Made by a program: the position numbers and the translations under genes
The notes under the pieces: model-generated
Database searches by the model: none
What the model was told of the DNA's origin: nothing
What the model saw: only the letters and a program-made list of their open reading frames with translations
In this document: in pieces, positions 3,522 through 32,000 of the stretch
Position numbering within the stretch: position 1 is the stretch's first letter
Layout: each line of letters starts with the position of its first letter
Origin: Fluviicoccus keumensis
GTDB taxonomy: Bacteria; Pseudomonadota; Gammaproteobacteria; Pseudomonadales; Moraxellaceae
DNA length: 32,000 nt
Reading direction: 5' to 3'
NCBI RefSeq assembly: GCF_004217445.1
Contig: NZ_SHKX01000013.1
Location: 451,031-483,030 of the forward strand

Positions 3522-3527
3522 CCGCTT

Positions 3528-5034
<1,507 letters not shown>

Positions 5035-5047
5035 GATTCACCCGCAG

Positions 5048-6193
5048 TCAGCGTGACGGGGCCAGTTGCTCGTAACCGCCCGCCACCGTCGCAATACATC
5101 CGGCCAGTTCCAGCTCCAGGAGCAGGCCGGCCATGGTGGCGGCATCATACCCGCTCTGTTCCACCAGCGCATCAAAGGACTGCACCTGCCAGCCCAGCAC
5201 CGTCAGCACGGCGCGGGCGCGCTCGTCCAGCGGCAGGTCCAGCGGCGGCGGTGCAGCCTGCACCCGGCCCGAGCCGGAGGCCGCCTGCGCCAGTTTCGGC
5301 CCCACATCCTCCAGCAACTGCACCGGCTCGTCCACCAGCCGCGCGCCGTCGCGAATCAGCGCGTGGCAGCCCTTCACCTGCGGATTGTGGATGGAGCCGG
5401 GAATGGCCCAGACCTCGCGGTTCTGTTCCAGCGCCTGGCGGGCGGTAATCAGCGTGCCGCTTTGCAGCGCCGCCTCCACCACCAGCACGCCCAGGCTGAG
5501 ACCGCTGATGACGCGGTTGCGGCGCGGGAAGTGGTATTGCAGCGGCGCGGTCTGCGGCAGGAACTCGCTGACCAGCACGCCGTCCCGCGCCACGATCGAC
5601 TCCGCCAGCGCCGCATGCGCGCGCGGGTAGAGATCGCACAAGCCCGAACCCAGCACCGCCACGGTGATGCCGTCCGCCTGCACCGCCGCCTGATGCGCGG
5701 CGGCGTCAATACCCGCCGCCAGACCGCTGGTGATGCCCAGCCCCTGCCGCGCCAGCTCGCCGGCGAATTCGCGCGCCGTCGCCAGCCCGTTCTGGCTGGG
5801 GCGGCGGCTGCCCACCATCGCCACCTGCGGCCACGACAAATGGCCCGCCTCGCCACGGCAGAACAGCAACGGCGGCGGGTCGGCGATTTCACGCAACAAG
5901 GGGGGATAGGCCGTATCGGCCAAGGTCAGCACGGTAATGCCGTGCCGTTCAATCAGCTGCAGCGCGCGCTCGACATCGGAACGGACCACGCGGTCATCGC
6001 CGCCGCGCCACTGCTCCAGCGCCCGCACCCGCGCGGCGGACAGGCCCGCCTGCCGCCACAACGCCGGATCGGCCTGCAACAACACCGCCGGGTTATCGGC
6101 CACGCGCCACAATTTGAGGAAGGCGGTATGCGACTGTTCCAGCAATCGCCACAACAACAGCCAGGACTCCCGCCCGGCAAAACCTGTATCCAT
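5048..6193 (-). CDS. dprA: DNA-processing protein A (Smf)
   Basis: 381 aa. The Rossmann-like DprA core is VAMVGSRRPSQNGLATAREFAGELARQGLGITSGLAAGIDAAAHQAAV ... NRVISGLSLGVLVVEA, followed by a C-terminal winged-helix-like tail. Classical position opposite def-fmt. Confidence 0.9.
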   Translation of the reverse strand: MDTGFAGRESWLLLWRLLEQSHTAFLKLWRVADNPAVLLQADPALWRQAGLSAARVRALEQWRGGDDRVVRSDVERALQLIERHGITVLTLADTAYPPLLREIADPPPLLFCRGEAGHLSWPQVAMVGSRRPSQNGLATAREFAGELARQGLGITSGLAAGIDAAAHQAAVQADGITVAVLGSGLCDLYPRAHAALAESIVARDGVLVSEFLPQTAPLQYHFPRRNRVISGLSLGVLVVEAALQSGTLITARQALEQNREVWAIPGSIHNPQVKGCHALIRDGARLVDEPVQLLEDVGPKLAQAASGSGRVQAAPPPLDLPLDERARAVLTVLGWQVQSFDALVEQSGYDAATMAGLLLELELAGCIATVAGGYEQLAPSR

Positions 6194-6229
6194 AACATCC
6201 CTGCACGCCGTCCCGGCGTTTTCCGGCCG

Positions 6230-6258
6230 AAAAAAAGGGCTGTCTATCCAGACAGCCC
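6230..6258 (-). terminator. Rho-independent terminator after the LysM gene (minus strand)
   Basis: Perfect 9-bp stem GGGCTGTCT (6237-6245) / AGACAGCCC (6250-6258) with a 4-nt loop. On the minus strand it is followed by a run of 7 T (plus-strand A 6230-6236). A second 7-bp hairpin AAACGGT/ACCGTTT lies at 6261-6277. Confidence 0.75.
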
Positions 6259-6292
6259 GAAAACGGTAAAACCGTTTGAAAGGGTTGGAGCC

Positions 6293-7390
6293 TTAGTCGC
6301 CGCTGACCGGAGGACGGATCTCGTCGCCCTGTTTCACCACGGTCGAGGCTTTCAGCACAATGGCGTAGCTGACCTTGTTGAAGGTGCGGAACACCATCGC
6401 CAGACCGGAACGCTCGGAAGGCAGCTGCACCAGTTCATCCTTGGTGCGGTCGCGCACAACGCCCCCGTGCTGGTAAACCGCGAAGGTGTGTCCTTGAACC
6501 ACGCCGTCGCGCTCGCCGCGGTTAACGACGATGATGCTGTTCAGACCGCCGGAACCCAGCGAGTTCATGACCTGCAGGATGCGGCCGGGCTTCACGTTCT
6601 CGGGGTTGGTCGGGTGGAAAACCGGGGTCACCGGCATGGCTTCGCTCAGCAGCAGGCGATCCTCGATACGAACTTCCTGGGTGGTGCGGGCCACGGAGAG
6701 GGTGCCGACATCGCCCTGCACAGCCGTGATGCTGCCGGCGCCGATGTCCATGGCTTCGATGCCCAGGATTTCCTGGGTGTCCGGATCCAGATAGAGATTG
6801 CCGCGGCGGTATACGCCATAGTTGTCGCCAACCGCCAATCCCTTGCCGCGCGCATAAACCTGTTCGCCGGCGCCGGCGATGATGCGGTGACCCAGACCGG
6901 CCAGCACATAGGGAGCGCGTTCGAAGTCTTCCGGCCCGACCACGCGGCTGCCGGACAGGAAGGCGCGGATGGCCTGCAGCGGCACGGCGGGAATGGCCAC
7001 GCTCATCGGTTCGGAACGGATTTGCGGCAACAGCTTGCCGGAGTCGCCGTCAACACGGCCGGTCGCCTTGTTGGTCAGGCGCTGCGCCACATCCGCGCAC
7101 CCGCCGCCGGTATCCACCGCGACCACGTTACGGTCCTGGATACGGCACAGCACCAGCTTGTCGCCGGGATAGATCAGGTGGGGATTGCGCACCTGCGGGT
7201 TCACTTCCCAGATTTCCGGCCAGCGCCACGGATCCTTCAGGTATCGGTTGGAAATGTCCCACAGGGTGTCGCCCTTCTGGACCGTGTAGCGCTCAGGCGC
7301 CGTGTCCTTGACATCGACAGGCTTGGGGCTGGCAGCCATGGCGCTACCGGCCAGCAGGCCGGCAACGAGTAATAGAACCGGTTTTTTCAT
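6293..7390 (-). CDS. LysM peptidoglycan-binding protein, TsaP-like by position
   Basis: I prefer the ATG at 7390 (MKKPVLLLVAGLLAGSAMA signal peptide) over the TTG at 7396. LysM motif: YTVQKGDTLWDISNRYLKDPWRWPEIWEVNPQVRNPHLIYPGDKL. It occupies the slot between dprA and def where Pseudomonas/Neisseria carry the LysM protein TsaP (recalled synteny). Confidence 0.8.
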   Translation of the reverse strand: MKKPVLLLVAGLLAGSAMAASPKPVDVKDTAPERYTVQKGDTLWDISNRYLKDPWRWPEIWEVNPQVRNPHLIYPGDKLVLCRIQDRNVVAVDTGGGCADVAQRLTNKATGRVDGDSGKLLPQIRSEPMSVAIPAVPLQAIRAFLSGSRVVGPEDFERAPYVLAGLGHRIIAGAGEQVYARGKGLAVGDNYGVYRRGNLYLDPDTQEILGIEAMDIGAGSITAVQGDVGTLSVARTTQEVRIEDRLLLSEAMPVTPVFHPTNPENVKPGRILQVMNSLGSGGLNSIIVVNRGERDGVVQGHTFAVYQHGGVVRDRTKDELVQLPSERSGLAMVFRTFNKVSYAIVLKASTVVKQGDEIRPPVSGD

Positions 7391-7553
7391 TATCAATTCC
7401 CTTCTTGGCGGGACTTATGGTCGCAAGGAGTCAAGGCCGCTATAATAAGCAACAATCCGTCCTTACTCTTTACGGCCTAATAGACGCACTTTTACAACAT
7501 GCTCAAGTGCTTATCAAGCATTGTTGTGATTTAACGGCAGGTGGTTGGCAAAT

Positions 7554-8060
7554 ATGGCAAAGCTTCCGATACTCCATTTCCCCGATCCGCGATTGCGAAC
7601 CCGGGCCAAACCCGTGTCCGTGGTGGATGATAACATCCGCCAGCTTGCCGAAGATATGCTCGAAACGATGTATGACGCACCGGGCATCGGCTTGGCGGCA
7701 ACCCAGGTGAACCAGCACATCCGCCTGCTGGTGCTGGACATCAGCGAGGACAAGAGCGCGCCGATGGTGTTCATCAATCCCGTCATCACCCCGCTGACGC
7801 AGGACTGCGTGCCTTATGAAGAAGGCTGCCTGTCCGTGCCCGGCTCCTACGACGAAGTGCAGCGCCCGGCCCGCATCCGCGTCGAGGCGCTGGACCGCAA
7901 CGGCAAGCCCTTCACCCTGGAAACCGACGGCCTGCTGGCGGTGTGCCTGCAGCACGAAGTCGACCATCTCGACGGCAAGCTCTTTGTCGATTACCTGTCG
8001 CCGCTGAAACGCCAGCGCATCAAGACCAAGCTTGAAAAACTGCAAAAGCAACGCGCCTAG
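7554..8060 (+). CDS. def: Peptide deformylase
   Basis: All three PDF motifs are present: [16 protein letters not shown] and [10 protein letters not shown] prefer the ATG at 7554 ([15 protein letters not shown]) over the tracked TTG at 7545. Confidence 0.95.
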
Positions 8061-8092
8061 GCGCACCGAATTCCAAAGGAGAGGTTTGTTTC

Positions 8093-9058
8093 TTGTCCAG
8101 TCCCAGTAGTCCGTTACGCATCGTCTTCGCCGGTACGCCGGTTTTCGCGGCCGAATCGCTGCGCGCCCTGTTGCAGAACGGTCATGACGTCGTTGCCGTC
8201 TACACCCAGCCCGACCGCCCCACCGGTCGCGGCCGCAAGGTGGAATCCGGCCCGGTGAAGGAGCTGGCCATCGACCGCCAGTTACCGGTTTACCAGCCGC
8301 TCTCGCTGCGCGACCCCGCCGCCCAGGCCGAACTGGCCGAGCTGCAACCCGACCTGATGGTGGTGGCCGCCTATGGCCTGATCCTGCCGCAGGCGGTGCT
8401 GGACATTCCCCGCCTCGGCTGCATCAACGTGCACGGCTCGCTGCTGCCGCGCTGGCGCGGCGCAGCGCCCATCCAGCGCGCCATCCTGGCCGGAGACCGC
8501 GAGACCGGCATCACCATCATGCAGATGGACGCCGGACTGGACACTGGCGACATGCTCTACAAGCTGACCTGTCCCATTTCCGGCCACGACACCTCGGCCA
8601 GCCTGCACGACCGGCTGGCGCTGCTGGGCGGCGATGCGCTGCTGCACGTGGTCGACGCGCTGGAAAACGGCGAAATCCTGACCCCGGAACCGCAGGACAG
8701 CGCACAGGCCACCTATGCCGCCAAACTGGTGAAGGAAGAAGGCCTGGTCAACTGGTCGCTGCCCGCCATCGAGGTGGTGCGCGCCATCCGCGCCTATAAC
8801 CCGTGGCCGGTGGCCTATACCCTGCTGCAGGGCCAGGCCGTGCGCCTGTGGTCGGCGCGGGTGATCGAGGAAACCACCACCGCTCCCGCCGGGATGATCG
8901 TGCAGGCCGACCGCAAGGGTCTGCGCGTGGCGGCGGGCAACAGCACCGTTGTCGCCATCGATACCCTGCAACTGCCCAACGGCAAGGCCCTGGGCTATGC
9001 CGACGTGCTGAACGCCCGCCGCGAGCTGCTGCAGCCCGGCGTGGTGCTCGGCGCATGA
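8093..9058 (+). CDS. fmt: Methionyl-tRNA formyltransferase
   Basis: 321 aa. Motifs are IVFAGTPVFAA and INVHGSLLPRWRGAAPIQRAI, plus the C-terminal Fmt domain. TTG start at 8093 lies about 10 nt after a strong SD (AAGGAGAGG, 8077-8085). Immediately downstream of def. Confidence 0.93.
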   Translation: MSSPSSPLRIVFAGTPVFAAESLRALLQNGHDVVAVYTQPDRPTGRGRKVESGPVKELAIDRQLPVYQPLSLRDPAAQAELAELQPDLMVVAAYGLILPQAVLDIPRLGCINVHGSLLPRWRGAAPIQRAILAGDRETGITIMQMDAGLDTGDMLYKLTCPISGHDTSASLHDRLALLGGDALLHVVDALENGEILTPEPQDSAQATYAAKLVKEEGLVNWSLPAIEVVRAIRAYNPWPVAYTLLQGQAVRLWSARVIEETTTAPAGMIVQADRKGLRVAAGNSTVVAIDTLQLPNGKALGYADVLNARRELLQPGVVLGA

Positions 9059-10356
9059 AGAAACTCTCCACCCGCGCCCTGGCCGCCAAGGCGCTGGCCC
9101 CGGTGCTGGCGGGCAAGTCCTCGCTGGGGGCCACCCTGCCGCCCGCCCAGCAGGCCTGCCTGCCGCGCGACCGTCCCCTGTTGCAGAACCTGGTGCTGGG
9201 CTGCACCCGCGAATGGGTATATCTGGAAGCGCTGCTGCGGCCGCTGCTGCAACAGCCGGTGAAGGACAAGGCGGTGCTGGCGCTGCTGGGTCTGGGACTC
9301 TATCAACTGCTGCGCACCCGCATTCCGCCGCACGCCGCCATCGGTGAAACCGTGGAAGCCGCCAAGGAACTGGGCTTCGCCCGCGCCGCCGGGTTGATCA
9401 ATGCGCTGCTGCGCCGCTTCCTGCGCGAACAACAGGACCTGCTGGTGGCCGGGGTCGGCTTTGAACATGCGCATCCGGGCTGGCTGAAGAAACGCCTGGA
9501 AAAAGACTGGCCGGACCACGCCGCCGCCATCCTCGCCGCCAACAACGAGCCCGCGCCGCTGACCCTGCGTGTCAACCGCCGCCGCCTGACCCGCAACGAT
9601 TATCTGGTGAAGCTGAAGGAAGCCGGGATCAGCGCCGAACCCAGTGCGCTGTCGCCGGAAGGCATCCGCCTGCACGAACTGCACGATGTCACCGCCCTGC
9701 CCGGTTATGCCGAGGGCGAGTTCTCGGTGCAGGATGAATCGGCGCAGCTGGCCGCCGGTCTGCTGGCCCCGGCCGCCGGATCGGTGGTGCTGGACGCCTG
9801 CGCCGCGCCGGGCGGCAAGACCGCGCACCTGCTGGAAACCGCCGACCCGCAACAGCTGTGGGCCATCGACAGCGACGCCGGACGGCTGGAACGCGTGCGC
9901 GATAACCTGCGCCGCCTGCAACTGGATCATCCGGCGCTGACCCTGCTGGCCGCCGACGCCGCCGACCCCGACGCCTGGGCGGGCGACACCGTGTTCGACG
10001 CCATCCTGCTGGACGCGCCATGCACCGGCACCGGAGTCATCCGCCGTCACCCCGACATCAAGCTGCTGCGCAAACCCGACGACATCGGCCGGACGGTGGA
10101 CTTGCAGGCGAAAATCCTGCGGGCGCTGTGGACGCGGCTGAAGCCCGGCGGCCGCCTGCTGTACGCCACCTGCTCGGTGATCCGCGCCGAGAATGAAAAC
10201 CAGATCGGGCATTTCCTGAAGGAAACGCCCGATGCGCGGGAAGTGACGATTGACGCCGTCTGGGGACTGGAACGGCCGCACGGACGGCAGATCCTGCCCA
10301 CTATTGGCGGCGGCGACGGTTTCTTTTATGCGTTGCTGGAGAAGACTTCAGCCTAG
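9055..10356 (+). CDS. rsmB: 16S rRNA (cytosine967-C5)-methyltransferase
   Basis: The start ATG 9055 overlaps the fmt stop (ATGA). There is an N-terminal NusB-like region, the SAM motif DACAAPGGKT, and catalytic blocks PCTGTGVIRRHPD and YATCS. The tracked start 8803 is a shadow extension inside fmt. Confidence 0.9.
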   Translation: MKKLSTRALAAKALAPVLAGKSSLGATLPPAQQACLPRDRPLLQNLVLGCTREWVYLEALLRPLLQQPVKDKAVLALLGLGLYQLLRTRIPPHAAIGETVEAAKELGFARAAGLINALLRRFLREQQDLLVAGVGFEHAHPGWLKKRLEKDWPDHAAAILAANNEPAPLTLRVNRRRLTRNDYLVKLKEAGISAEPSALSPEGIRLHELHDVTALPGYAEGEFSVQDESAQLAAGLLAPAAGSVVLDACAAPGGKTAHLLETADPQQLWAIDSDAGRLERVRDNLRRLQLDHPALTLLAADAADPDAWAGDTVFDAILLDAPCTGTGVIRRHPDIKLLRKPDDIGRTVDLQAKILRALWTRLKPGGRLLYATCSVIRAENENQIGHFLKETPDAREVTIDAVWGLERPHGRQILPTIGGGDGFFYALLEKTSA

Positions 10357-22730: not shown

Positions 22731-23735
22731 TCATTCCGACTGTCGCCGCCGATAGCGCAGCGGCGACATGCCCGACCAGGACTTGAAGGCCCGGCTGAAC
22801 GCGCTCTGTTCGGCAAACCCCAGCAGCAGGGCGATCTCGGGCAACGCCAGCAACGGATTACGCAGGTAGTCCTTCGCCAGTTCATAGCGCAGGGAGTTGA
22901 GAACCTGCTTGTAGCGCAGCCCGCGTTCACGCAGTTGCCTGTACAGCGAGCGCTCGGAAATCCCAAGACGCTCCGCCACATACGCCAGCTCCGGCTGGCC
23001 GTCCTGCAATACCGACATGATCTGCTGCTGCAATGACTGCAGCAGGGCGTCACTGGTCGGTATGGATTTCAGCGCCGCTTCCGCCTGCTGTTCCAGCAAT
23101 TGCACCAGGAAGGGGTCATAACGGTTCAAGGACTGGTTCAGGCACCTGACCGGCAGGTGAATAGCCTGCCTGAGGGCGTTAAAGACCGGCGGCAACCCGA
23201 AAAAGGCTTCATACGGTGACGTATCCGGTGGCGGCGGATAGCGGAACTCCACCCGCGCCACCGGCTTCTCACAACCCTCCAGGAACTGGCATAGCAGCGT
23301 ATACAGCCCGGCCGCCAGAAGCTCGTCCACGACCAGTGTGGAGTCTCCGTGGTCCCAGGTCAGCACCACATCATCCCCTTCAACGGACACTGCAGACGGT
23401 GTCAGGTTGTGCAGCAGCGGCTCCAGCCGGTTGAAACGCATCAGGGCATGCATGGCCGTACCGGAATACATCGCCACATAACCGACCACACCGATGTGAT
23501 GAGGACGAATGCAGCGCCCGATTTCCAGCCCGAGCGCCGGCAAAACGCAGGACTCCCGAATCGCCTCGATAGCACGCCACCATTCCCGGAACGGAATGAT
23601 GCGCTGCGCCGCCAGATCCAGTAATTGCTGGCGCAACGCCGGCAACTCCAGTCCCTGCCGGCCCATGAAGTCCAGCAACAACGCAGCGGCGGTACCGGCG
23701 ACATACATGGCCGGGGGCTCACAAGGGTCAAACAT
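22731..23735 (-). CDS. AraC-family transcriptional regulator with N-terminal ligand-binding domain
   Basis: 334 aa. C-terminal double HTH: LAYVAERLGISERSLYRQLRERGLRYKQVLNSLRYELAKDYL ... IALLLGFAEQSAFSRAFKSWSGMSPLRYR. Confidence 0.88.
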   Translation of the reverse strand: MFDPCEPPAMYVAGTAAALLLDFMGRQGLELPALRQQLLDLAAQRIIPFREWWRAIEAIRESCVLPALGLEIGRCIRPHHIGVVGYVAMYSGTAMHALMRFNRLEPLLHNLTPSAVSVEGDDVVLTWDHGDSTLVVDELLAAGLYTLLCQFLEGCEKPVARVEFRYPPPPDTSPYEAFFGLPPVFNALRQAIHLPVRCLNQSLNRYDPFLVQLLEQQAEAALKSIPTSDALLQSLQQQIMSVLQDGQPELAYVAERLGISERSLYRQLRERGLRYKQVLNSLRYELAKDYLRNPLLALPEIALLLGFAEQSAFSRAFKSWSGMSPLRYRRRQSE

Positions 23736-23919
23736 GCGGCTATCTGTCTCCTCGTCTTAGGCGGCGGAAAATCCTTGATGTCACCGGAAACACTTGCTCC
23801 CGCATGGCGGGCGGCGATTATCCGGATATCGGGGTTGAGGAATCGTTTGCGCCGATCACGTCGCAACTACCGGCGTCCATCCAACAAATCATCGACAATC
23901 CCGGAAGCCCGGCAGGTCT

Positions 23920-23947
23920 GGTCAAGAAAGTGACGGTACGGTCAAGA
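23920..23947. promoter_or_regulatory. Direct repeat GGTCAAGA x2 with 20-bp register in the AraC / small-ORF divergent region
   Basis: ggtcaaga at 23920-23927 and 23940-23947 (read directly). This is about 80-100 bp upstream of the ATG at 24028. Confidence 0.3.
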
Positions 23948-24027
23948 CAGCCCGGAACGGCGGCGCGATCATGACCGGACGCCGGATTCCCCTCCGGCGG
24001 CGCCCCTCATCTGTCCGGAGGAACCCG

Positions 24028-24306
24028 ATGACCATCGCCCGTATCCGCCTGCTGCAAAATCTCTGTCGGTTCTGCCTCATCACCGCCATGCTGATGCTGC
24101 CGGGATTCCTGGTAGAGAATCTCTGCCTGAGCAACGGGATGGTGATGATCCTGATCGCAGCGCTGGCGGCCGGAGCCGTGCTGACGGTGGTGATCCGCCG
24201 CCTGCGCTGCCCGGTCTGCAGCCATATTTTTGTCGGCCGGGAACATGTCGTCCTCTTCACCGTGACCTGCTGCAATTGCGGGCGGCGGGCAGGTGATACC
24301 GCCTGA
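24028..24306 (+). CDS. Small membrane protein with C-terminal CxxC...CxxC, function unknown
   Basis: ATG 24028 lies 5 nt after GGAGGA. There are two hydrophobic segments, then RCPVCSHIF...VTCCNCGRR. The tracked start 23971 gives an Arg-rich extension with no SD. Confidence 0.55.
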   Translation: MTIARIRLLQNLCRFCLITAMLMLPGFLVENLCLSNGMVMILIAALAAGAVLTVVIRRLRCPVCSHIFVGREHVVLFTVTCCNCGRRAGDTA

Positions 24307-24312
24307 GCGGGC

Positions 24313-24693
24313 CTAAAGCGGCAACCGCGCCAACGCTGCCCGCAAGTGATCCCCCAGCGACGGCATCTCCGCCAGGTAATAGCTCAGGGAAGGGTGATAG
24401 GAGGATTCGGCGTGATGGCGAAGCTGGTCGATCGGGGCATCGCCGCGACCAAACCAGGCCAGCGCCGCCAACTCGGCGACCGCCGATGGCTGCAAACGCT
24501 GGAGGTAACGCAGCAAGGCGATACCGGCGGGAGACAGCCGGGCAACCATCTGCCGGTCAAACTGTTCATGGTCGATAAACAGGGGAAGGATATCGTGAGC
24601 GTCGGGAACCACAGGCGGTCCATGGCGCTCTTTCTCGTCAGCCAGGCGGCAAACCGCACTGACGTCGGACAACAAAAGGCTCATGAATTTCAT
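24313..24693 (-). CDS. DUF3775-like protein
   Basis: I chose the ATG at 24693 (MKFMSLLLSD...). The block VAELAALAWFGRGD fits my recollection of the DUF3775 signature (..LvALmWiGRGD). 126 aa. The family assignment is from memory only. Confidence 0.55.
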   Translation of the reverse strand: MKFMSLLLSDVSAVCRLADEKERHGPPVVPDAHDILPLFIDHEQFDRQMVARLSPAGIALLRYLQRLQPSAVAELAALAWFGRGDAPIDQLRHHAESSYHPSLSYYLAEMPSLGDHLRAALARLPL

Positions 24694-24987
24694 CCCCGCT
24701 TCCCTTCCCCCTGTCCGCCCCGGGCGGATTGTCCTCACCCCGCAAGGGTCTGACGCCCGCTCGGAAATGGAACACGGCTCGCCGGACTTCCGACAAAAGC
24801 CATACAAAATGCTGGTATTAATGATCCTCCCTCGGGATTAACGGCGTATTGACGGCCCCTGCCGATTTTTGACCAGGACTGCCATTCAGCCCAACTGCTT
24901 TGTAACGGCGGCCGGAGGAAGCGGAGGCAGCCGCCCCGGCGCTCGGTTACACTGTGCACCCGCTATCACTGAATCAAGGACGTAGCC

Positions 24988-25575
24988 GTGACGGACAACC
25001 TCTACGCACCGCCCAAAACCATCACCGCCATCGACGCCGGGCAAGATAACGCCCAAACCTTCTACGTCGTTTCACCGCGGAAACTGGCCATCCTGTTCTG
25101 GGGTACTTTCGGCAACTACGTGCTGTATCTGTTTTACAAGAACTGGGCCTTGCAGAAGCAGGCCACCGGCGCGGACATCATGCCGGTCATGCGCGGCCTC
25201 TTTTCGATTTTCTTCGTCCTCGACCTGTATCAGCTGGCCGACAAGCGGCTGACTGAAAAAGGCGAAACGCATCCCTGGGATATCCACAGCCTGGCGACCA
25301 AATACATTGTGCTGGTGATCGGCAAGAACGTGCTGGAACGGATCACGATCAGCCAACCCTTCCCGCAATTGCTGGCACTGGGGATGCTGTACGGGGTTTA
25401 CCGCACCCTCGCCCAAGCCCAGAACGGCCTGAACCTGGCTGCCGGTGATGCCGAAGGCACGTCCAACCATAAGCTGACCGCCGCCAATTACGTCTGGATT
25501 GTGCTGGGAGTGGCGCTATGGGTCATCGTCATCCTCGGCTTGCTCAGCATGGTCTGGCCCGGGTTACTGAAGTGA
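24988..25575 (+). CDS. Integral membrane protein, function unknown
   Basis: GTG start follows an AAGGAC SD-like sequence. 195 aa with several hydrophobic helices (e.g. YVWIVLGVALWVIVILGLLSMVW). Codons are GC3-biased. Confidence 0.6.
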   Translation: MTDNLYAPPKTITAIDAGQDNAQTFYVVSPRKLAILFWGTFGNYVLYLFYKNWALQKQATGADIMPVMRGLFSIFFVLDLYQLADKRLTEKGETHPWDIHSLATKYIVLVIGKNVLERITISQPFPQLLALGMLYGVYRTLAQAQNGLNLAAGDAEGTSNHKLTAANYVWIVLGVALWVIVILGLLSMVWPGLLK

Positions 25576-25616: not shown

Positions 25617-26567
25617 TCAGGAAACCGGCCGGGGCTGAAACAAGACCCGCAGCCACTCCCGCAACAGGGCGGCGCGGTTGATCAGCAGGGAACCGAAAAT
25701 CAGCGAGCAGCCCGCCAGCTGCACGCCGCCCATGGTTTCCCCCAGCCAGGCCACCGCCAGCAGCGCCACCCACACCGGCTCCACCACCATGATCACCACG
25801 CCATGCGTATGGCCGGACAGGCTTTGCGCGTGCGTCTGCAACAGGAAGCGCATGGCGGTGCCGATCACGGCGCTGGCCGCGATCCAGCCGCCCATGGCCG
25901 GGGTGAAATGACCGAACACGGGCGTCCAGGCCTCGAAGGCCAGCGACAGGACGCCGGACACCAGGCCCACCATGGCCAGCACCACCGAGGTCAAGGCAAT
26001 GGCGGGCACGCCGGGAACGTGCTTGTGGCTGCCGTCCGGACGGCGATGCTGGCGGGCGTTGGCCGCCTGCATGTTCAAACGGAAAAACAGGGCGAACAGC
26101 ACGGCGGAGGTGACGTAGAACACCTGCCCCGCCTCGGGACGGAAACCGTGGCGCAGGGACAGCAGGCCGAGGCCCGCGGCCGCCACCGGCAGCGCAATCC
26201 ACGTACTGCGCGGCGGTCGCTCGCCGAAGAACAGCCGCCCCATCACCGGCACCAGCACTACGCCCAGACTGGTGAGGAACGCGCCCTCGCCGACGTGACT
26301 GCCGGTGAAGATGCCCATGACCCAACAGCTCATGGCCACCGCGAATACCAGTCCGACCCCGATGCTGCGGCGCAGGGCATGACGATCCAGACTGCGCAGG
26401 GTGCGGTGGCCGATGGCGGCCAGCAACGCCGACGCCAGCAGGAAGCGCAGGCACATGAACAGCAGCGGCGGCATCAGCAGCACCGCCTCGCGCGACATGA
26501 TCCAGCTGACGGCGGCCAGCAGGGTGACGCCGACGAGCATGAGGTCGGATTTGGCGGCGGGGGTCAT
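25617..26567 (-). CDS. DMT-superfamily (EamA-like) transporter
   Basis: I chose the ATG at 26567 (MTPAAKSDLMLVGVTLLAAVSWIMSRE). It is a polytopic membrane protein with two EamA-like halves. The tracked start 26693 adds a non-membrane extension. Confidence 0.8.
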   Translation of the reverse strand: MTPAAKSDLMLVGVTLLAAVSWIMSREAVLLMPPLLFMCLRFLLASALLAAIGHRTLRSLDRHALRRSIGVGLVFAVAMSCWVMGIFTGSHVGEGAFLTSLGVVLVPVMGRLFFGERPPRSTWIALPVAAAGLGLLSLRHGFRPEAGQVFYVTSAVLFALFFRLNMQAANARQHRRPDGSHKHVPGVPAIALTSVVLAMVGLVSGVLSLAFEAWTPVFGHFTPAMGGWIAASAVIGTAMRFLLQTHAQSLSGHTHGVVIMVVEPVWVALLAVAWLGETMGGVQLAGCSLIFGSLLINRAALLREWLRVLFQPRPVS

Positions 26568-26728
26568 GGGATAGGGCACCGGCACGGACGGGCTGCCATT
26601 GTGCGGTATCCGTGCGGGAAAATCATCGAGACGTTGGGAGGGGGGAGCCTGGCTTAGCCGGACAAACCGTACATTCAGCGATGAAGGGCGCACGCAGTGC
26701 GTCCCTACGGGATTGCCGGGAGTTGAAG

Positions 26729-26757
26729 TTGACCGGGTTGGCGGGGGCTGCTAGCGT
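26729..26757 (+). promoter_or_regulatory. Promoter-like TTGACC-N17-TAGCGT inside repeat copy 1
   Basis: TTGACC at 26729-26734 and TAGCGT at 26752-26757. The same arrangement is conserved in copy 2 (TTGACG 30239-30244, N18, TAGCTT 30263-30268). The -10 is weak, so this is a hypothesis only. Confidence 0.3.
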
Positions 26758-26786
26758 TGTTGCATTCCGTCCCATGGATTTAGTTC

Positions 26787-26904
26787 GCCTAACAAGGTGA
26801 GGCTTCCTGCCAAGCAGCTAATTTTAAAGGCAAATTATGGGGACTCATTCCTGTTTAGGCGAACGGTTTGATATGCGAACTCTGTCGCCGAAATATAGTT
26901 GGGC
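26787..26904 (+). other. attC site (long type, 118 bp), left-most in the array
   Basis: Inverse core GCCTAAC at 26787-26793 and core GTTGGGC at 26898-26904. It contains an internal imperfect inverted repeat TTCGCCTAACA / TGTTTAGGCGAA. I could not resolve the L boxes by hand. Confidence 0.6.
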
Positions 26905-27180
26905 ACCAAAATCGTGGATGTTGATGAAATAGCTCTGTTCGAAAATCTACTTGATTCGTTTGACAGACTTTACGATCAAGAATCGAGTGTTGTAGACATT
27001 TATGCGCTTCTGTTTGCCACAACCAAGGCACTACCTAATTCATCGTTTGCAGTACTCTTAAACACCACTACATCCGAACTTTTGAAAATTGTTCGATCTG
27101 GCTGCTCAGTCGAAGAGCAAAATAGCATTGTGCTTGATATTGTTCAGCCACTTCGCGAGGTAATCGCTGCTGTTGTTTAA
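26899..27180 (+). CDS. Cassette 1 ORF: small acidic helical protein, unknown function
   Basis: This is the only sizeable ORF in the 469-bp cassette (26899-27367) and shares the array's orientation. The start is uncertain (TTG 26899 inside the core, or GTG 26914) and there is no SD. I recognised no family. Confidence 0.45.
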   Translation: MGTKIVDVDEIALFENLLDSFDRLYDQESSVVDIYALLFATTKALPNSSFAVLLNTTTSELLKIVRSGCSVEEQNSIVLDIVQPLREVIAAVV

Positions 27181-27248
27181 GTTATTGAGGCGTGTGCTAT
27201 AGAGCTTTAAACTGACCCTAGTTGTCCAAAGCTTTTAGCGCTGCACTT

Positions 27249-27373
27249 GCCCAACTTTGCGCTCAAGTGGGATAACGCCCCAGCCACTTATGGGGCATTT
27301 TTTGATGGTTCTGAGGTACGTCTCAGATTTTATTTTGCTGTGGGGCGTTACCCCTTAGCGCCGGTAGTTAGGG
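27249..27373 (+). other. attC site of cassette 1 (125 bp)
   Basis: R'' is GCCCAAC at 27249-27255. L'' GCGCTCAAG (27259-27267) pairs with L' CTTAGCGC (27354-27361), leaving one bulged base. The stem continues GGG/CCC and TAACGCCCC (27273-27281) / GGGGCGTTA (27342-27350). Apical hairpin TCTGAG/CTCAGA is at 27310-27327. R' is GTTAGGG at 27367-27373. Confidence 0.8.
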
Positions 27374-27379
27374 CTAAAC

Positions 27380-27871
27380 ATGATCAAAGCCATCAGATTT
27401 GCAATATTTATTGGGGTTTCTATGAGCTCAAATGCAAATGAAATATTTATCCACTCTCACAATCCCACCTCCAATCGATTCGCCATACTAGAGGATAATG
27501 AAAGCATTGCTTTTCTTTATCTAACGGAAGTCGGAACTCAACGCCCCATCAAAGATGCCGTTGCCTACTCTCGCCATCCCCTCGCTCTGAAAGTCGATTG
27601 GGAAAAAATCAAAGAGAAGGGCGATACCCCGCCACTATCAAAAGATGTTGCAAGTTCAGAGGCAGTTATTGCAAACCCTTCAGAGGTTGAGTTTTCTTTT
27701 AAATGGTCATCTGATGGTAACGCCGTAGCATTACTCCGAAATGGAAAACCGATTGCATTTGCTTCAGCCTCAGAAAAATATGGCTTTTCTAAAGCCATAT
27801 CAAAGCCCAGCCCACTAGCAAACGCTTGGGATCAAGGGCTTTATGAAGTTACATTTGGAGAGCAGCCCTAA
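27380..27871 (+). CDS. Cassette 2 ORF: unknown protein, possibly DUF2251-like
   Basis: 163 aa, or 149 aa from the ATG at 27422. The pattern FAILEDNESIAFLYL ... KWSSDGNAVALLRNGKPIAF resembles my recollection of DUF2251 proteins (vFEDDGetGYfY ... Ws.dG.kaaLlinG). The stop TAA lies inside the attC inverse core. Confidence 0.6.
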   Translation: MIKAIRFAIFIGVSMSSNANEIFIHSHNPTSNRFAILEDNESIAFLYLTEVGTQRPIKDAVAYSRHPLALKVDWEKIKEKGDTPPLSKDVASSEAVIANPSEVEFSFKWSSDGNAVALLRNGKPIAFASASEKYGFSKAISKPSPLANAWDQGLYEVTFGEQP

Positions 27872-27945
27872 CTAGTGGTTCGTTCACATCGTTCGCTGCG
27901 CTCACTGGGACGGGCTAAAGCCCACTCCTTAAGCAACCGTTAGAG
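27865..27945 (+). other. attC site of cassette 2 (81 bp)
   Basis: Inverse core GCCCTAAC is at 27865-27872 and core GTTAGAG at 27939-27945. GGTTCGTT and AAGCAACC are partially complementary L-like boxes. Central hairpin GGGC-TAAA-GCCC is at 27912-27923. Confidence 0.75.
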
Positions 27946-27962
27946 CCAACAAGGAGGTTCAT

Positions 27963-28367
27963 ATGTATAGCGCAGGAAAAGAGGTTCTTGAGCAGGGCTT
28001 AAGCTTGTTCAGCCGGATCTTATTGGGCGTCGTCGCCGGCCTGTTTGGTGTTGGAATGATTTTTATGGGGCATGCGGCCAAGGCTCCTTGGTTCTTCTAT
28101 GTCTTTGGCTCGTTCTGTCTTTTTATTACGGTGGCTTGCATTACAACCGGAAAAGTCAGGGTCTTTTTTGGAAGGCTCATCGGAGCGCTGGTTTTCATGG
28201 CTGCGGCTTGGTATCTAGTCTCAGAGTTATCTTCCGGGCCGATCATTTCAGGCATGGACGCCGACCCATCCATTCTTAACGCGGCTAAGTTTTTCATACT
28301 GGCAGGCATACCTGGTCTGGGCTATGCGTTATTCGCGCGCTTCTCTCCAAGAGAATCGGATAAATGA
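27963..28367 (+). CDS. Cassette 3 ORF: small integral membrane protein (four hydrophobic segments), unknown function
   Basis: ATG lies 5 nt after a perfect AAGGAGG (27951-27957). 134 aa with four predicted TM helices. The attC follows immediately. Confidence 0.7.
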   Translation: MYSAGKEVLEQGLSLFSRILLGVVAGLFGVGMIFMGHAAKAPWFFYVFGSFCLFITVACITTGKVRVFFGRLIGALVFMAAAWYLVSELSSGPIISGMDADPSILNAAKFFILAGIPGLGYALFARFSPRESDK

Positions 28368-28375
28368 ACGAGTTG

Positions 28376-28440
28376 GCTCTAACCATTCGCGGCAGGTGCG
28401 GCGGTCCTGACGGGCCGCGAGCTGGGCTCATTCGTTAGGT
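28376..28440 (+). other. attC site of cassette 3 (65 bp, classical short type)
   Basis: GCTCTAAC-CATTCG...GCCGCGAGCTGGGCTCATTC-GTTAGGT. The layout closely parallels the aadA-type attC as I recall it (GTCTAACAATTCG...CTCAAGCGTTAGAT). Core GTTAGGT at 28434-28440 fits GTTRRRY. Confidence 0.8.
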
Positions 28441-28531
28441 ACGGACAGGAACGGAACTCACGAACAGCCCCGGAAAGCTCAGGCCTGCTTGGCTACTTCT
28501 GGTCCCTGCCCCAGTTTTTCATCTTCAAACC

Positions 28532-30061
28532 TTAGCCCCCGTCCAAGCTGTCAAACGCCCACCAGCATGAACCGCCGCCCCCAAACGTATGCCGTGTCTT
28601 CCGGTCAAAATGGAACTCGCCCTGACAGGCCCGCCCTCTTTCCAGCGCACCACGCAGTTCATCCCACTGCCCCAGCAAATCCTTGTTCTTCGCCCACTCG
28701 GGGGGATTCGCGTATTTGATCCGCAACTTGTACCGGAACGCATCTCCTTCCGTGTCATAGGGGTCATCATTGATCAGCTGCGCATCCACAATATCGACCG
28801 AAGCAACCCCCAAGGGCAGACAATCCGGGCGTTTGGGATCGACCGCGGTTGCATAGCCTGCCGTCAGCTCAAAGATATCGGCCTTTTGGCGCCGGCCATC
28901 TTCAAGCTGAATGTCTTGTCCAGCCCTCCTTTGCATCACCCCCAGGCGTTCAAGTAATTCGAGATAGGGTATCGTCTTGCGGGCAACCGGATCCCAGCCT
29001 GATCGCCCCTTGGACGGGAAAATGGCCACGGCGTAGTGGTCCGACTCGCCTTCAAACAGCGATTTGTCCACCGGCAAGTTTCCCCTGCCCGGCAGGGCCA
29101 GACAGGTACCGGGCCACTGACCAGCCTTGCCATGACCATGCATCTCCGCCAGCAGACGTCGAATTTCATCCACCGTCGGTGGTGCAAAGGCTTTCAGGGC
29201 CTCCATCTTGCGGATACGCAGGGCAGCCAGCCGCGACAGCATCGCTTCGTATTCGGCCCGGCCGCCATCCTTTTGCGTGGCATCCACATAAGCATCCTTG
29301 TAATCGCGGCTGTAAACCGTAGGGGCGCGACCACACGGCCCTTGCCCATCCCGGACCAAGTGCCGACACTCAACCCAGGATTTGTTTTGACGAACCAACT
29401 GAACCTTGAACATCTGCCCGGCACTGTTCTTTTCGATTTCCGGGAAAGCCGCCAGCAGCGCGGGATTTCTTACCCATGCGGATTCTGCTGATGTTGCATC
29501 CAGCCCGATCCGGGCCGTGACCTCGTAAAACGGCTGGCTTTGCCCTGCCTGACTGCCCGGCGGATGCGGAGTGATTTGATCGATGCCGAGGTAATGTGGC
29601 TGTCCGTATTCGAAACAGCTGGCATTGCGGTTCGGACCCGATTTCAGCCAGCCCGACTCAGACAGCCGGTAACGGATAGCCGGGCGACCGTTCAGGGTCA
29701 ATGTCAGTTTTTCCAGCAAACCGGCCTGGCTCAGTGCATCCAGTTTCCGCAATTGCTCCTGACGGGGAGCAGACTCCGGAGCATCGGTATAGAAATCCAT
29801 GGACCACGCCAACGGTTCACGGGTCTTCGTGCCCACATCCGGAGCAGGATAGGACGGCAGGGAAAGACACAACCGTTTTCCTTGCTCGCCCCCGGAATGC
29901 TGTTCCCAAAGGGCGCGGACTACAGGATCGAAATTGGCGGCCGTGGGTTGGTTTTCCTGCCAGTGGTTGTAGGCATACACGCCGGCTGTCAGTGTCAGAC
30001 CCAATCCGAGGACTGCCGCAACTGACGGGAAAATGCGACGTTTACTGAAATTTAAATGCAT
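28532..30061 (-). CDS. Exported / membrane-anchored Cys-containing protein of unknown function, reverse-oriented in the array
   Basis: 509 aa. The N-terminus KRR + IFPSVAAVLGLGLTLTAGVYAY is a signal peptide or signal anchor. There are eight Cys. An apparent two-fold internal repeat is anchored on CLxLP, L(D/E)xLxxxG(L/V)(L/M), (Y/F)xL(S/T)xxG(W/Y) and C(F/L)xxG. G+C (about 52-63% on sampled lines) is intermediate between the other cassettes and the host. Confidence 0.75.
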   Translation of the reverse strand: MHLNFSKRRIFPSVAAVLGLGLTLTAGVYAYNHWQENQPTAANFDPVVRALWEQHSGGEQGKRLCLSLPSYPAPDVGTKTREPLAWSMDFYTDAPESAPRQEQLRKLDALSQAGLLEKLTLTLNGRPAIRYRLSESGWLKSGPNRNASCFEYGQPHYLGIDQITPHPPGSQAGQSQPFYEVTARIGLDATSAESAWVRNPALLAAFPEIEKNSAGQMFKVQLVRQNKSWVECRHLVRDGQGPCGRAPTVYSRDYKDAYVDATQKDGGRAEYEAMLSRLAALRIRKMEALKAFAPPTVDEIRRLLAEMHGHGKAGQWPGTCLALPGRGNLPVDKSLFEGESDHYAVAIFPSKGRSGWDPVARKTIPYLELLERLGVMQRRAGQDIQLEDGRRQKADIFELTAGYATAVDPKRPDCLPLGVASVDIVDAQLINDDPYDTEGDAFRYKLRIKYANPPEWAKNKDLLGQWDELRGALERGRACQGEFHFDRKTRHTFGGGGSCWWAFDSLDGG

Positions 30062-30231
30062 GTGAAATCCGTTCTTATGATTTTCGGCAAGTCGGCTAGC
30101 GCGACCCTTGCGAATGTTATGGCTGTCCTAGGCAAACGACAAGCGTGGCCGTTTGGAAGATTTTCCCCTTGGAGGCTGTAGTCCCTTAGCCGGGGCGGAA
30201 TCAGAAATAGGGGCCAGTCCCCCTGTGTTTA

Positions 30232-30420
30232 GCTTAGGTTGACGGAGGGTGGCGCGCGCTGCTAGCTTTCAGGAACTTCATCCTATGGGTTTAGTTCGCC
30301 TAACAAGGTGAGGCTTCCTGACAAGCGGCTAATTTGAAAGGCAAATGACTCTGACTCATTGCTGTTTAGGCGAATGGATTGTTATGCAAACTCTGTCGCC
30401 GAAATATAGTTAGGCATCAA
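30232..30420 (+). repeat. Copy 2 of the ~190-bp module (promoter-like box + long attC)
   Basis: See copy 1: 30292-30420 matches 26781-26909 at 114/129 positions. Differences cluster in an 8-nt block (TATGGGGA versus GACTCTGA). Confidence 0.85.
30298..30415 (+). other. attC site (long type, 118 bp) closing the 2-kb unit
   Basis: Inverse core GCCTAAC (30298-30304) is perfectly complementary to core GTTAGGC (30409-30415). It has the same architecture as 26787-26904. Confidence 0.6.
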
Positions 30421-30432
30421 GGGAGACGAACA

Positions 30433-30801
30433 GTGCCGCAAACAGTCATTCCGCAACTACGCATCACAAACTCAGAACAAAGCCTTGGCTTCTATGTCAA
30501 CGGCCTCGGCTTCAAGATTGACTGGCAGCACCGATTCGGTCCCCGCTACCCGCTTTTTGTTCAACTCACGAGGCAAGGCCAAACGATCTTTCTGACAGAG
30601 CATATGGGCGACTGTGAAGTCGGAGGCGCCGTCTACTTCATCGTCCAAGATGCCGGACACACTTTGTCCGAGTTTGAGCAACATGGTGTCGTTGCCACCA
30701 ACCCACTGTCAAATACATCGTGGGGTACAAGCGAATTTCTGCTGACCGATCCGGACGGCAACCGTTTGCGCTTTGCCTCTGAACTTCAGCAACAAACATG
30801 A
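30433..30801 (+). CDS. Cassette ORF: glyoxalase / bleomycin-resistance (VOC) family protein
   Basis: GTG 30433 lies 6 nt after AAGGGAGA and inside the cassette; the tracked TTG 30379 would start inside the preceding attC. IPQLRITNSEQSLGFYVNGLGF ... LLTDPDGNRLRF fits the VOC/Ble-like pattern. 122 aa. Confidence 0.8.
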   Translation: MPQTVIPQLRITNSEQSLGFYVNGLGFKIDWQHRFGPRYPLFVQLTRQGQTIFLTEHMGDCEVGGAVYFIVQDAGHTLSEFEQHGVVATNPLSNTSWGTSEFLLTDPDGNRLRFASELQQQT

Positions 30802-30828
30802 CTCGCCAAGTCCCAGCGGTCACTTGCT

Positions 30829-30848
30829 GCCTAACCTGGGCGTTTTAG
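30829..30848 (+). other. Truncated attC remnant (inverse core only)
   Basis: CTTGCTGCCTAAC (30823-30835) is the reverse complement (12/13) of the cassette 5' end GTTAGGCATCAAG (30409-30421). Only about 25 bp remain before the next ORF, with a core-like GTTTTAG at 30842-30848. Confidence 0.5.
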
Positions 30849-30860
30849 AGGAGCCACATT

Positions 30861-31370
30861 TTGCTCGATCTTGATGATCCTCGTTGGTACGAGCTCAAAC
30901 ATGCTTATGGCACGGCTGCGGATATCCCTGCGTTGTTAAAACAACTCGCCGATCTACCGTCCTCCGAAAACGACAACGAGCCTTGGTTCTCCATCTGGAG
31001 CGCATTGGCGCATCAAGGCGACGTCTACACAGCTTCTTTCGCTGCCGTGCCACACGTAATAGAGGCGCTCGCCTCTGCCCCGTTAAAAGCCGATTTCTCC
31101 TATTTTCAATTTCCGGCCTGGGTTGAAGTCTGCCGCACCAAGAAGAGCGTTTCGGTTCCTGAAGACATTGCCCCAGCCTACTTTGAGTCCTTGTCTCGGC
31201 TGCCCTCGCTTGTGGGTGCAGCAGCCGCGCGCCCATGGGACGAAGGGTTTCTATGTTGCGCTCTTTCAGCGGTTGCCGCGGCGAAAGGGCAGCCCTCAGT
31301 TGCCGAAGCAGTGTTGGAGCTTTCGCCCGAGGTGGCCGGCGAGTTCATGGAGTGGTTCTATGAACGCTGA
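30861..31370 (+). CDS. Helical protein of unknown function (last ORF of the array)
   Basis: TTG start lies 7 nt after AGAGGAG (30847-30853). 169 aa. The N-terminal block DDPRWYELKHAYGTAADIPALLKQL recalls uncharacterised HEAT-like or immunity-like proteins, but I cannot name a family. Confidence 0.65.
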   Translation: MLDLDDPRWYELKHAYGTAADIPALLKQLADLPSSENDNEPWFSIWSALAHQGDVYTASFAAVPHVIEALASAPLKADFSYFQFPAWVEVCRTKKSVSVPEDIAPAYFESLSRLPSLVGAAAARPWDEGFLCCALSAVAAAKGQPSVAEAVLELSPEVAGEFMEWFYER

Positions 31371-31475
31371 AAAGCCCAATTCTACGTTATCGCCATAAAA
31401 CAACCGGAACCAATCGGGAGGGAATAGGCACCTGTCCCCAATTTTCCCCCGACGACCCTCCGCCCTGTCAGCAGC

Positions 31476-31493
31476 GTCGGGCTGAAGCCCGAC
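31476..31493. other. 7-bp perfect hairpin at the island / thiolase junction
   Basis: GTCGGGC-TGAA-GCCCGAC, 8 bp from the thiolase stop. There is no T-run on either strand. Confidence 0.35.
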
Positions 31494-31500
31494 CCACAGG

Positions 31501-32000
31501 CTACAACCGCTCAATCACCGTCGCCGTCGCCATCCCCTGCGCAATGCACATCGTCTGCAAGCCATAGCGCGCGCCCCGCCGCTCCATCTCCGCCAGCAGC
31601 TTCCCCATCAAAATCGCCCCCGTCGCCCCCAGCGGATGCCCGTGCGCAATCGCCCCGCCGTTCACATTCACCTTCTCCGCCGGAATTCCCAGCGCCTTCA
31701 TCCAGATCAACGGCACCGGCGCAAAGGCCTCGTTGATCTCAAACAGGTCGATATCCGCCAGCAACAAGCCCGCCTTTTTCACCGCCCGCTCCGTCGCCGG
31801 AATCACCTCCATCAGGGCCAGCGTCGGATCACCCGCCGCGCACACCCGCGCCAGAATCCGCGCCCGCGGCCGGAAACCGTCACGTTCCGCCGCCATCCGG
31901 TCGGCCACCAGCATCACCCCCGCCCCGTCGGCAATCTGCGACGCATTGCCCGCCGAAATCAGCCCCGAGCCCGGCCGGAACGGACGCGGCAGCGCCGCCA
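31501..32000 (-). CDS. Acetyl-CoA C-acyl/acetyltransferase (thiolase), C-terminal part; 5' end outside the window
   Basis: The frame stays open beyond the tracked GTG to the window edge (..SAGNASQIADGAGVMLVAD..). Thiolase C-terminal signatures NVNGGAIAHGHPLGATG and CIAQGMATATVIERL are present. Confidence 0.9.
   Translation of the reverse strand, partial: AALPRPFRPGSGLISAGNASQIADGAGVMLVADRMAAERDGFRPRARILARVCAAGDPTLALMEVIPATERAVKKAGLLLADIDLFEINEAFAPVPLIWMKALGIPAEKVNVNGGAIAHGHPLGATGAILMGKLLAEMERRGARYGLQTMCIAQGMATATVIERL

Follow-up and report, generated by a model that had tools for sequence, protein, structure and literature searches.

Integron integrases (IntI) excise gene cassettes as circles and insert them at the G|TT of attI, attC and secondary sites, with the folded bottom strand of attC as the substrate. 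In class 1 integrons, fused cassettes with a truncated attC site (59-base element) occur, the loss of attC welding two cassettes into a unit that cannot be excised. Cassettes are also found in attC-site clusters that have no integron integrase (CALINs), defined by two or more attC sites that share a strand and are separated by less than 4 kb, with no intI nearby and with a typical size of about five cassettes (PMC4889954). Given that 2961 CALINs have been counted in 21,105 genomes (bioRxiv 10.1101/2022.09.11.507474), another one in an environmental gammaproteobacterium is unsurprising. Here we analysed a 32-kb stretch of chromosomal DNA (the window) from the freshwater bacterium Fluviicoccus keumensis (Moraxellaceae), in which the block at 26725-31392 is very probably such a chromosomal integron cassette cluster without an integrase, part-way through its decay.

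The locus belongs to a well-known kind, with a modest twist in the form of a repeated junction unit. Like the described CALINs (PMC4889954), it contains same-strand attC sites less than 4 kb apart that are heterogeneous among themselves, no intI or recognisable intI pseudogene in the window, and about five cassettes whose cargo mostly falls into no family. Unlike them, it has two junctions on a repeated 185-nt unit that does not resemble attC, two attC sites without interiors, and a 2-kb segment with a reverse-strand gene that has no cassette pedigree. With the sedentary chromosomal integrons of Iodobacter (L082) and Candidatus Competibacter (L084) it shares two cassette families, the G|TT junctions and the polarity of an open reading frame (ORF) followed by attC; by contrast with these integrons, it has no intI, no demonstrable attI beside an integrase, and no homogeneous set of attC sites.

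Five cassettes lie head to tail on the plus strand. Cassette A (26899-27367) contains an ORF starting at 26899 or 26914 and ending at 27180 (93 amino acids, no family) and attC site 2 (27249-27373); cassette B (27368-27939) an ORF at 27380-27871 (163 amino acids, no family) and attC site 3 (27865-27945); and cassette C (27940-28434) an ORF at 27963-28367, encoding a predicted membrane protein of 134 amino acids without a family, and attC site 4 (28376-28440). Beyond segment D (28435-30409), cassette E (30410-30836) encodes a glyoxalase-superfamily protein (30433-30801; Pfam Glyoxalase_7, E = 3e-20) and cassette F (30837-31386) a protein of 169 amino acids without a family (30861-31370).

The strongest line of evidence came from comparison with the same cassettes elsewhere. 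The cassette B protein is 84% identical in amino acids to a Thalassolituus protein, and its homologue lies on two different Thalassolituus-type contigs with a different upstream attC and a different downstream cassette in each; the DNA homology starts with TTAGGGC directly after G|TT and stops at the next G|TTA. A more distant homologue of B is the penultimate cassette of a complete Iodobacter integron. The cassette F protein belongs to a large, taxonomically scattered family (1851 matches) and is 96% identical in amino acids to its counterpart in a live, complete Candidatus Competibacter integron from a different bacterial order, where that cassette comes first; the homology spans TGGGCGT to GCCCAA(T/C). 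The integrases of both complete integrons match TIGR02249 with 478-479 bits (cut-off 265). B and F therefore recur as discrete cassettes with other neighbours and also within complete integrons, and this comparison shows them to be mobile cassettes that circulate among distant bacteria. The original prediction that the cassettes are of mixed origin holds; most of the cargo genes have no database family, the glyoxalase gene in E being the exception. One of the arrays with a cassette B homologue, in Thalassolituus sp. ST750PaO-4 (L080, 7990-11000), is itself an integrase-less array of five cassettes, among them a TIR-domain (CAP12-PCTIR) and a DUF7668 cassette, and the G of the G|TT before its B cassette is mutated to A.

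Further evidence was the complementarity between junctions and inverse cores. Because a cassette was once circular and joined by IntI at G|TT, its first bases complement the inverse core (R'') of the attC that belongs to it; each cassette of this array would once have been a small circle, joined by this tyrosine recombinase at the G|TT of a recombination site. Junction matches of 8/8, 9/9, 12/12, 6/7 and 12/13 were all present in the sequence as predicted. A script re-found perfect runs of 8 nt at 26898/27248, 9 nt at 27367/27864 and 12 nt at 27939/28372, as well as a perfect run of 8 nt at 30409/30828 that can be extended to 12/13. The four links other than the 6/7 match mark boundaries at G|TT with a start complementary to the cassette's own R''; the 6/7 match, which links 28434 to 30298 across the 2-kb segment D, is not significant alone. 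Single matches of 8-9 nt are not rare, as 2.2 runs of at least 8 nt are expected per shuffled island within a search range of 2.5 kb, whereas the 12-mer alone is rare (0.008 expected per shuffle). When a chain was scored, with each inverse core followed 40-150 nt later by the next GTT with its own partner, three consecutive perfect links of at least 8 nt occurred in only 2 of 2000 Markov shuffles, and no equivalent three-link chain was present in any other 4.85-kb piece of the window. The junction rule was rejected as a guide to strand, being symmetric; orientation was taken from the arm of the bulged base, the polarity of the ORFs and the strand-specific model matches.

Folding of the bottom strand gave, for site 2, one long imperfect hairpin closed by R''/R' (z = -4.3; none of 200 shuffles as stable) with the full attC architecture, GCCCAAC-TTTG-CGCT(C)AAG...CTTAGCG-CCGGTA-GTTAGGG. 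In its L box, GCT(C)AAG/CTTAGC, the bulged base falls on the arm that also carries it in aadA1 (GTT(C)AAG/CTTAAC), and the same type of fold was obtained for the true attC sites of aadA1, arr-3, dfrA5, aacA4 and blaVIM-2 from class 1 integrons. Site 4 was nearly as stable with the R box closed (-10.1 kcal/mol) as without (-10.6 kcal/mol), and site 3 folded poorly, its cores and bulged C being present and its L box mutated relative to the Thalassolituus copy. Two terminator-like hairpins (27277-27296 and 27310-27327, within 27277-27337), each with a T run behind it, lie in the variable centre of site 2 and could stop read-through from cassette A.

We also used three home-made surrogate covariance models trained on 8-22 true attC sites, namely R1 (eight class 1 sites), R3 (22 sites from four sources) and R2, which was dropped as it brought no gain over R1. 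The best R1 match in the window, on both strands, was site 4 (28377-28440, 20.5 bits, E = 0.004), and a sub-threshold R1 match fell exactly on the coordinates of site 3 with 8.3 bits, the maximum for that site; the best R3 match was site 2 (27249-27374, 14.4 bits, E = 0.13). No region in the 26 kb of core DNA outscored the predicted sites with R1 or R3. On true attC sites outside its training set R1 gave 19.2-19.7 bits for arr-3, 16.7 for dfrA27 and 11.8 for dfrA5, and 21.3 bits for the Competibacter attC of the cassette F homologue, a range that includes the score of site 4; in the two complete chromosomal integrons it found 5 and >8 sites, all on the array strand, and in 772 kb of unrelated loci the sole other match of at least 20 bits sits in another cassette array. 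The models are insensitive and their E-values rough. No Rfam family matched the window at the gathering threshold or at E ≤ 10, a database that appears to contain no attC model fit for use. Sites 2, 3 and 4 are all on the plus strand, separated by gaps of 0.43-0.49 kb (0.6 and 0.5 kb from start to start), a spacing within the CALIN definition. Of the five heterogeneous attC sites originally predicted, sites 2, 3 (with a decayed L box) and 4 were retained; the two 118-bp sites, site 1 (26787-26904) and site 5 (30298-30415), are copies of one repeat without an attC fold, so the set reduces to three attC sites plus one repeated odd site.

Comparison with the copies elsewhere also revealed how far the array has decayed. 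Both arms of the site 3 L box are changed (GTTCGT/TTAAG versus the canonical GTT(C)AA/TTAAC in the Thalassolituus copy), which accounts for its poor fold and low model score. The original prediction overlooked two degraded attC remnants, which belong to cassettes E and F. When aligned with the Competibacter integron, the window showed that the attC of E is reduced to an R'' of GCCTAAC (30829-30835) abutting the start of F, TGGGCGT, and that the attC of F consists of R'' GCCCAAT (31374-31380, with AAC mutated to AAT), TCTAC and R' GTTATCG (31386-31392), with ~47 nt of interior missing relative to the Competibacter copy. The array must consequently end on the right at ~31386, not at 31450 as first proposed. 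Among the five cassette attC sites, those of A and C look intact, that of B is mutated in its L box, and those of E and F are without an interior; these deletions would fuse the E and F genes into an unexcisable pair. This is reminiscent of the fused cassettes of class 1 integrons, in which most of an attC is likewise lost and cassettes are welded together as at the E/F junction, with the difference that here everything between R'' and R' is gone, at two consecutive attC sites.

As intact copies of the damaged sites exist elsewhere, the array is decaying, and we infer that it has no maintaining integrase and is eroding. Under the mechanism we propose, the array would have become detached from an integron or been laid down at a secondary site, and would now be without its cognate integrase and be losing its recombination sites. 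Its genes, including those for the glyoxalase-superfamily protein and the small membrane protein, would then be on the way to becoming fixed chromosomal genes that, if expressed, use internal promoters or read-through. The locus offers a worked example of array ageing, in which intact, point-mutated and interior-deleted attC sites stand side by side, each dated by means of an intact counterpart of its cassette from another genome.

Several observations weigh against this interpretation. The decay is the only ground for holding that no integrase maintains the array. Sites 1 and 5 fail the fold and model tests for attC despite the real cassette junctions at their 3' ends. The surrogate models are weak, each ranks a single site first, the E-values are marginal (0.004 and 0.13), and site 3 reaches significance with no model. 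In addition, because ORF509, the gene of segment D, has no cassette-borne relatives, segment D may not be a cassette, and the locus could then be two short arrays.

The array occupies an accessory interval. As predicted, it lies between an EamA/drug-metabolite transporter (DMT) gene at 25617-26693 and the C-terminal coding region of a thiolase gene with its stop at 31501, both on the minus strand, and forms a block of ~4.7 kb of lower G+C, windowed composition giving 0.44-0.59 across 26501-31500 versus 0.66-0.69 on either side (host G+C ~0.62-0.71). The closest genome compared, the Fluviicoccus metagenome-assembled genome (MAG) SMAG_U1459 (L003; DMT protein 92% identical in amino acids), has the same DMT-thiolase neighbourhood, and its interval (6150-10000) holds a different 3.8 kb with a reverse-strand gene and a gene, perhaps for defence, encoding an 888-amino-acid ATPase of the SMC_N/AAA_23/AAA_15 type; it contains no cassette of the window and gave no attC match. 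An invariant, host-like interval is thereby excluded.

The left boundary of the array is a ~70-nt palindromic element resembling repetitive extragenic palindromic (REP) sequences (26640-26712, minus strand; GTAGGGACGCACTGCGTGCGCCCTTC..., of the form GTAGGGRCGCA..GC.TGCGCCCTTC...), whose GTAGGG end faces the array. The element is single in the window (0 expected by chance), and its only other copy among 79 loci compared is at 3546-3615 of L004, a contig of the Fluviicoccus MAG E19_maxbin.123. This contig contains (1-3620) an array of three or more cassettes, again without an integrase, which lies ~2 kb upstream of the DMT orthologue and adjoins an IS256-family transposase at the contig end, with attC sites at ~1424-1495, 2373-2459 and 3030-3119, a degenerate last site at 3493-3546, and one cassette encoding a DMP19-like protein. 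Both arrays abut the REP-like element at its GTAGGG end, between array and DMT gene. The different insert in L003 and the array at the same element in L004 together mark the region as a recurrent entry point for foreign DNA in Fluviicoccus, the DMT-thiolase interval being a hotspot with alternative cargo and the REP-like landmark lying close by.

No IntI was detected in the 32-kb window by tblastn with IntI1 and two chromosomal IntI proteins at E ≤ 1e-3, as originally claimed; relaxing the threshold to E ≤ 50 within the island returned noise only, and no IntI remnant was found beside either copy of the 185-nt repeat. An IntI encoded elsewhere in the F. keumensis genome could nevertheless act in trans, in which case the array would not be orphaned and would be a detached part of an active integron or a set of secondary-site insertions. 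We consider this possible without favouring it. In its favour, the host genomes of about half of CALINs encode IntI (PMC4889954), and IntI can place cassettes at GWT sites in the genome (bioRxiv 10.1101/2022.09.11.507474). The array also borders probable chromosomal DNA on its right at a G|TT junction, and the REP-like landmark adjoins another array in a congeneric MAG. On the other hand, of the five cassette attC sites three bear damage of a kind that would be opposed by selection for recombination, and no intI lies within 26.7 kb on one side. Insertion at secondary (attG) sites likewise joins cassettes to non-att DNA at G|TT and is a possible origin of small CALINs that were never beside an integrase (bioRxiv 10.1101/2022.09.11.507474); attG sites share no more than a GWT consensus and are otherwise ordinary positions in the genome, whereas here one long repeat served on two occasions, at an identical base. 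A decaying CALIN remains the reading we prefer, and the original interpretation of an integrase-less array of cassettes of mixed origin is supported by the three attC sites, the homologues of B and F in complete integrons, the lack of IntI in the window and the accessory character of the interval.

The repeat is the only unexplained part of the locus. Its two copies, at 26725-26909 and at 30236-30420 (the 3' part of segment D), both on the plus strand, form a direct repeat with 84% identity over 174 nt and identical blocks of 31 and 23 nt. The repeat extends from ~62 nt upstream of the putative inverse core to a few bases past G|TT (26898|26899 in copy 1). Cassettes A and E, the first of each half of the array, are each joined to a repeat copy: in copy 1, GTTGGGCA matches the R'' of cassette A (8/8), and the junction of copy 2 matches the R'' of cassette E (12/13). 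The junctions at the 3' ends of the repeats are thus real. Sites 1 and 5 have R''/R' cores at their ends (GCCTAAC ... GTTGGGC / GTTAGGC) but neither L boxes nor one continuous hairpin with the R box as its closing stem. The R'' of the repeat pairs instead with an internal GTTTAGGCGAAC (GTTTAGGC), giving an 82-nt hairpin (26783-26864 in copy 1; GTTCGCCTAAC...GTTTAGGCGAAC) followed by ~34 unpaired nt before the crossover. Enforcing the R box in copy 1 gave -1.8 kcal/mol versus a minimum free energy of -9.6 kcal/mol, a cost of 8 kcal/mol, and in copy 2 it gave a four-branch fold. The attC models found nothing significant on the repeat (site 5, 9.4 bits, E = 2; site 1, no full-length match). Sites 1 and 5, first described as independent imperfect palindromes, must therefore be replaced by one direct repeat in which only the internal hairpin forms.

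Three other explanations of the repeat were rejected or corrected. A short ORF of 22-31 codons was discarded because the copies differ at five positions in the shared frame, each time non-synonymously; an intrinsic terminator was discarded because no T run follows the hairpin; and an extension past the crossover was discarded because, with the cassettes conceptually removed, the right flanks of the two cassette blocks are not significantly similar (P ~0.1), which places the end of the repeat at the recombination point. Exact scans with the repeat 21-mers GTTCGCCTAACAAGGTGAGGC (genome collection) and CTCTGTCGCCGAAATATAGTT (metagenomes) gave no match. Both copies also keep an 8-codon mini-ORF (ATG G[AG]T TTA GTT CGC CTA ACA AGG TGA) that overlaps a hairpin arm.

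Three readings of the repeat were weighed. The one we rank first, and moderately favour, takes it as the 3' end of a "D-type" cassette that occurs twice, an aberrant attC-like site included, with copy 1 as what would be a truncated remnant of such a cassette against the chromosome. This reading needs no new concept and fits three observations: the repeat ends at the crossover, an integrase is lacking, and copy 2 lies within the array.

According to the second reading, which we regard as unlikely, the repeat would be a free-standing, double-stranded entry site, attI-like (or attG-like), unlinked to an integrase and with its own outward promoter; its two copies would bracket an ORF509-type module, and two mini-arrays, unit1-A-B-C and unit2-E-F, would have been laid down at the identical G|TT of the two copies by an integrase supplied in trans. 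The repeat lacks the attC fold and fails the attC models, and the homology between copies stops at the crossover with different cassettes beyond. Its 3' end, GTCGCCGAAATATAG|TTRGGC, resembles GTCGCCCTAAAACAAAG|TTAGGC of attI1, although this similarity is short and possibly due to chance. Inverted half-sites, GCCGAA-N6-TTRGGC, are present in the repeat and three real attI regions share CTAA-N7-TTRGGC at the crossover, but the spacing is 6 in the repeat and 7 in the three attI sites. Core-like GTTAGGCGAA motifs recur in the repeat, with GTTTAGGCGAA and TTCGCCTAAC upstream, and the length of the unit is about that of the spacer between intI and the crossover. A conserved TTGACC/G-17/18-TAGCGT/TAGCTT pair is directed at the cassettes, but these promoter-like hexamers fail a consensus scan, in which no sigma-70 promoter was found in the repeat and the TTGACC-17-TAGCGT pair stayed below threshold; the pair lies at 26727-26758 and 30239-30270, as TTGACC/TTGACG and TAGCGT/TAGCTT 17/18 nt apart.

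The position of the repeat also argues against an entry site of this kind. An attI lies between intI and the first cassette, whereas the left neighbours here are the REP-like element and the DMT gene (copy 1) and ORF509 (copy 2); neither copy has an intI or its remnant beside it, attI is normally single and here one of two copies lies within the array, and no homologue of the repeat was found next to an intI. In short, the 3' end of the repeat resembles attI sites (attI1, the attI of L084 and a metagenomic family in L064-L079) in its candidate inverted half-sites around G|TT, in a GTCGCC...AAA..AG|TTAGGC similarity to attI1 and in its upstream core-like motifs, and the repeat differs from them in not adjoining an integrase, in having two copies and in a half-site spacing one base shorter. 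Were this reading true, the CALIN would have been seeded at a portable "landing pad" and not left behind by integrase loss, and an integrase-independent entry site would bear on the origin of CALINs without integrase remnants.

The metagenomic family came from a gapped metagenome scan with the hairpin arms, which returned 16 loci, 13 of them one attI family otherwise non-homologous to the repeat; since the arms were fixed by the query, the result is a lead and not evidence of homology. In this family (L064-L069, L071, L073-L077 and L079), 6-7 GTTAGRYGAA motifs, comparable to those of the repeat and in both orientations, lie between a degraded intI and variable first cassettes. Each member of the family has a different first cassette, at ...AAATACATG|TTRRRY, and the adjoining intI is truncated or frameshifted (N-terminus MDQRPRKLLDQTRE...). 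Another locus, the 10-kb metagenome contig L070, has a 70-nt hairpin, TTCGCCTAAC...GTTTAGGCGAA, inverted at its two ends (101-170 and 10072-10141).

The third reading concerns segment D, which consists of ORF509 (28532-30061, minus strand), a terminator-like hairpin (30207-30226) and repeat copy 2, and which is doubtful as a true cassette. ORF509 encodes a protein of 509 amino acids with an N-terminal hydrophobic anchor, is identical to EV700_2625 of Fluviicoccus keumensis and matched no Pfam family. Only five homologues were found; the contexts of three besides ORF509 itself were examined, and none is a cassette array; its assignment as a recombinase or a member of a known family was rejected on the grounds of the missing Pfam match, the hydrophobic N-terminus and these homologues outside arrays. 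Segment D could be a separate insertion module made of ORF509 and its two flanking repeats, with cassettes added later at both copies, a possibility to which we attach little weight. In two unrelated genomes, ORF509-family genes are bracketed by direct repeats of ~140-190 nt (92-94% identical in L062 and 75-79% in L060), the spacing of the repeats here without cassettes A-C would be ~1975 nt, close to the ~1760 nt in L062, the G+C of segment D is intermediate (0.57-0.59), and its start matches the presumed R'' at only 6/7. Against this, the repeats of the other genomes are unrelated in sequence, and the exact stop of the repeat at the IntI crossover, with the dissimilar right flanks described above, fits a recombination half-site better than a simple duplication.

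In L062, from a Candidatus Accumulibacter MAG, the repeats are at 1041-1226 and 2802-2942, and the ORF509-type gene lies between two peptidase-U32 genes followed by an SCP2 gene; in L060, a JGI metagenome contig, they are at 4112-4253 and 7610-7750 and enclose a tandem pair of ORF509-family genes. The bracketing repeats of both contain a hairpin. This pattern suggests that the ORF509 family moves by some insertion process that generates repeats.

The weakest alternative, that the palindromes are chance or host REP-type repeats in an ordinary genomic island unrelated to integrons, draws on the individually common 8-9-nt GTT/AAC complementarities and the REP-like element at the left edge, and is highly improbable in view of the chain statistic, the strand-specific attC-model matches and above all the exact-boundary homology of B and F with cassettes in arrays and complete integrons, which effectively refutes it.

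Between the array and the thiolase stop codon lies a spacer (31387-31500) without cassette features that includes a hairpin, GTCGGGCTGAAGCCCGAC; it is probably chromosomal, and its similarity to the equivalent L003 spacer is weak and non-significant. No tRNA gene was found in the window, the remainder of which consists of ordinary core genes, including dprA, rsmB, and the genes for oligopeptidase A and a GGDEF protein. The only other recorded copy of the window DNA is in short Logan contigs, which break at the 185-nt repeats. Upstream of the DMT gene, G+C dips to 0.58-0.62 at 23001-25500; a 195-amino-acid ORF (24988-25575) without a Pfam family adjoins an AraC-type regulator inside this dip, and the stretch may be another accessory patch.

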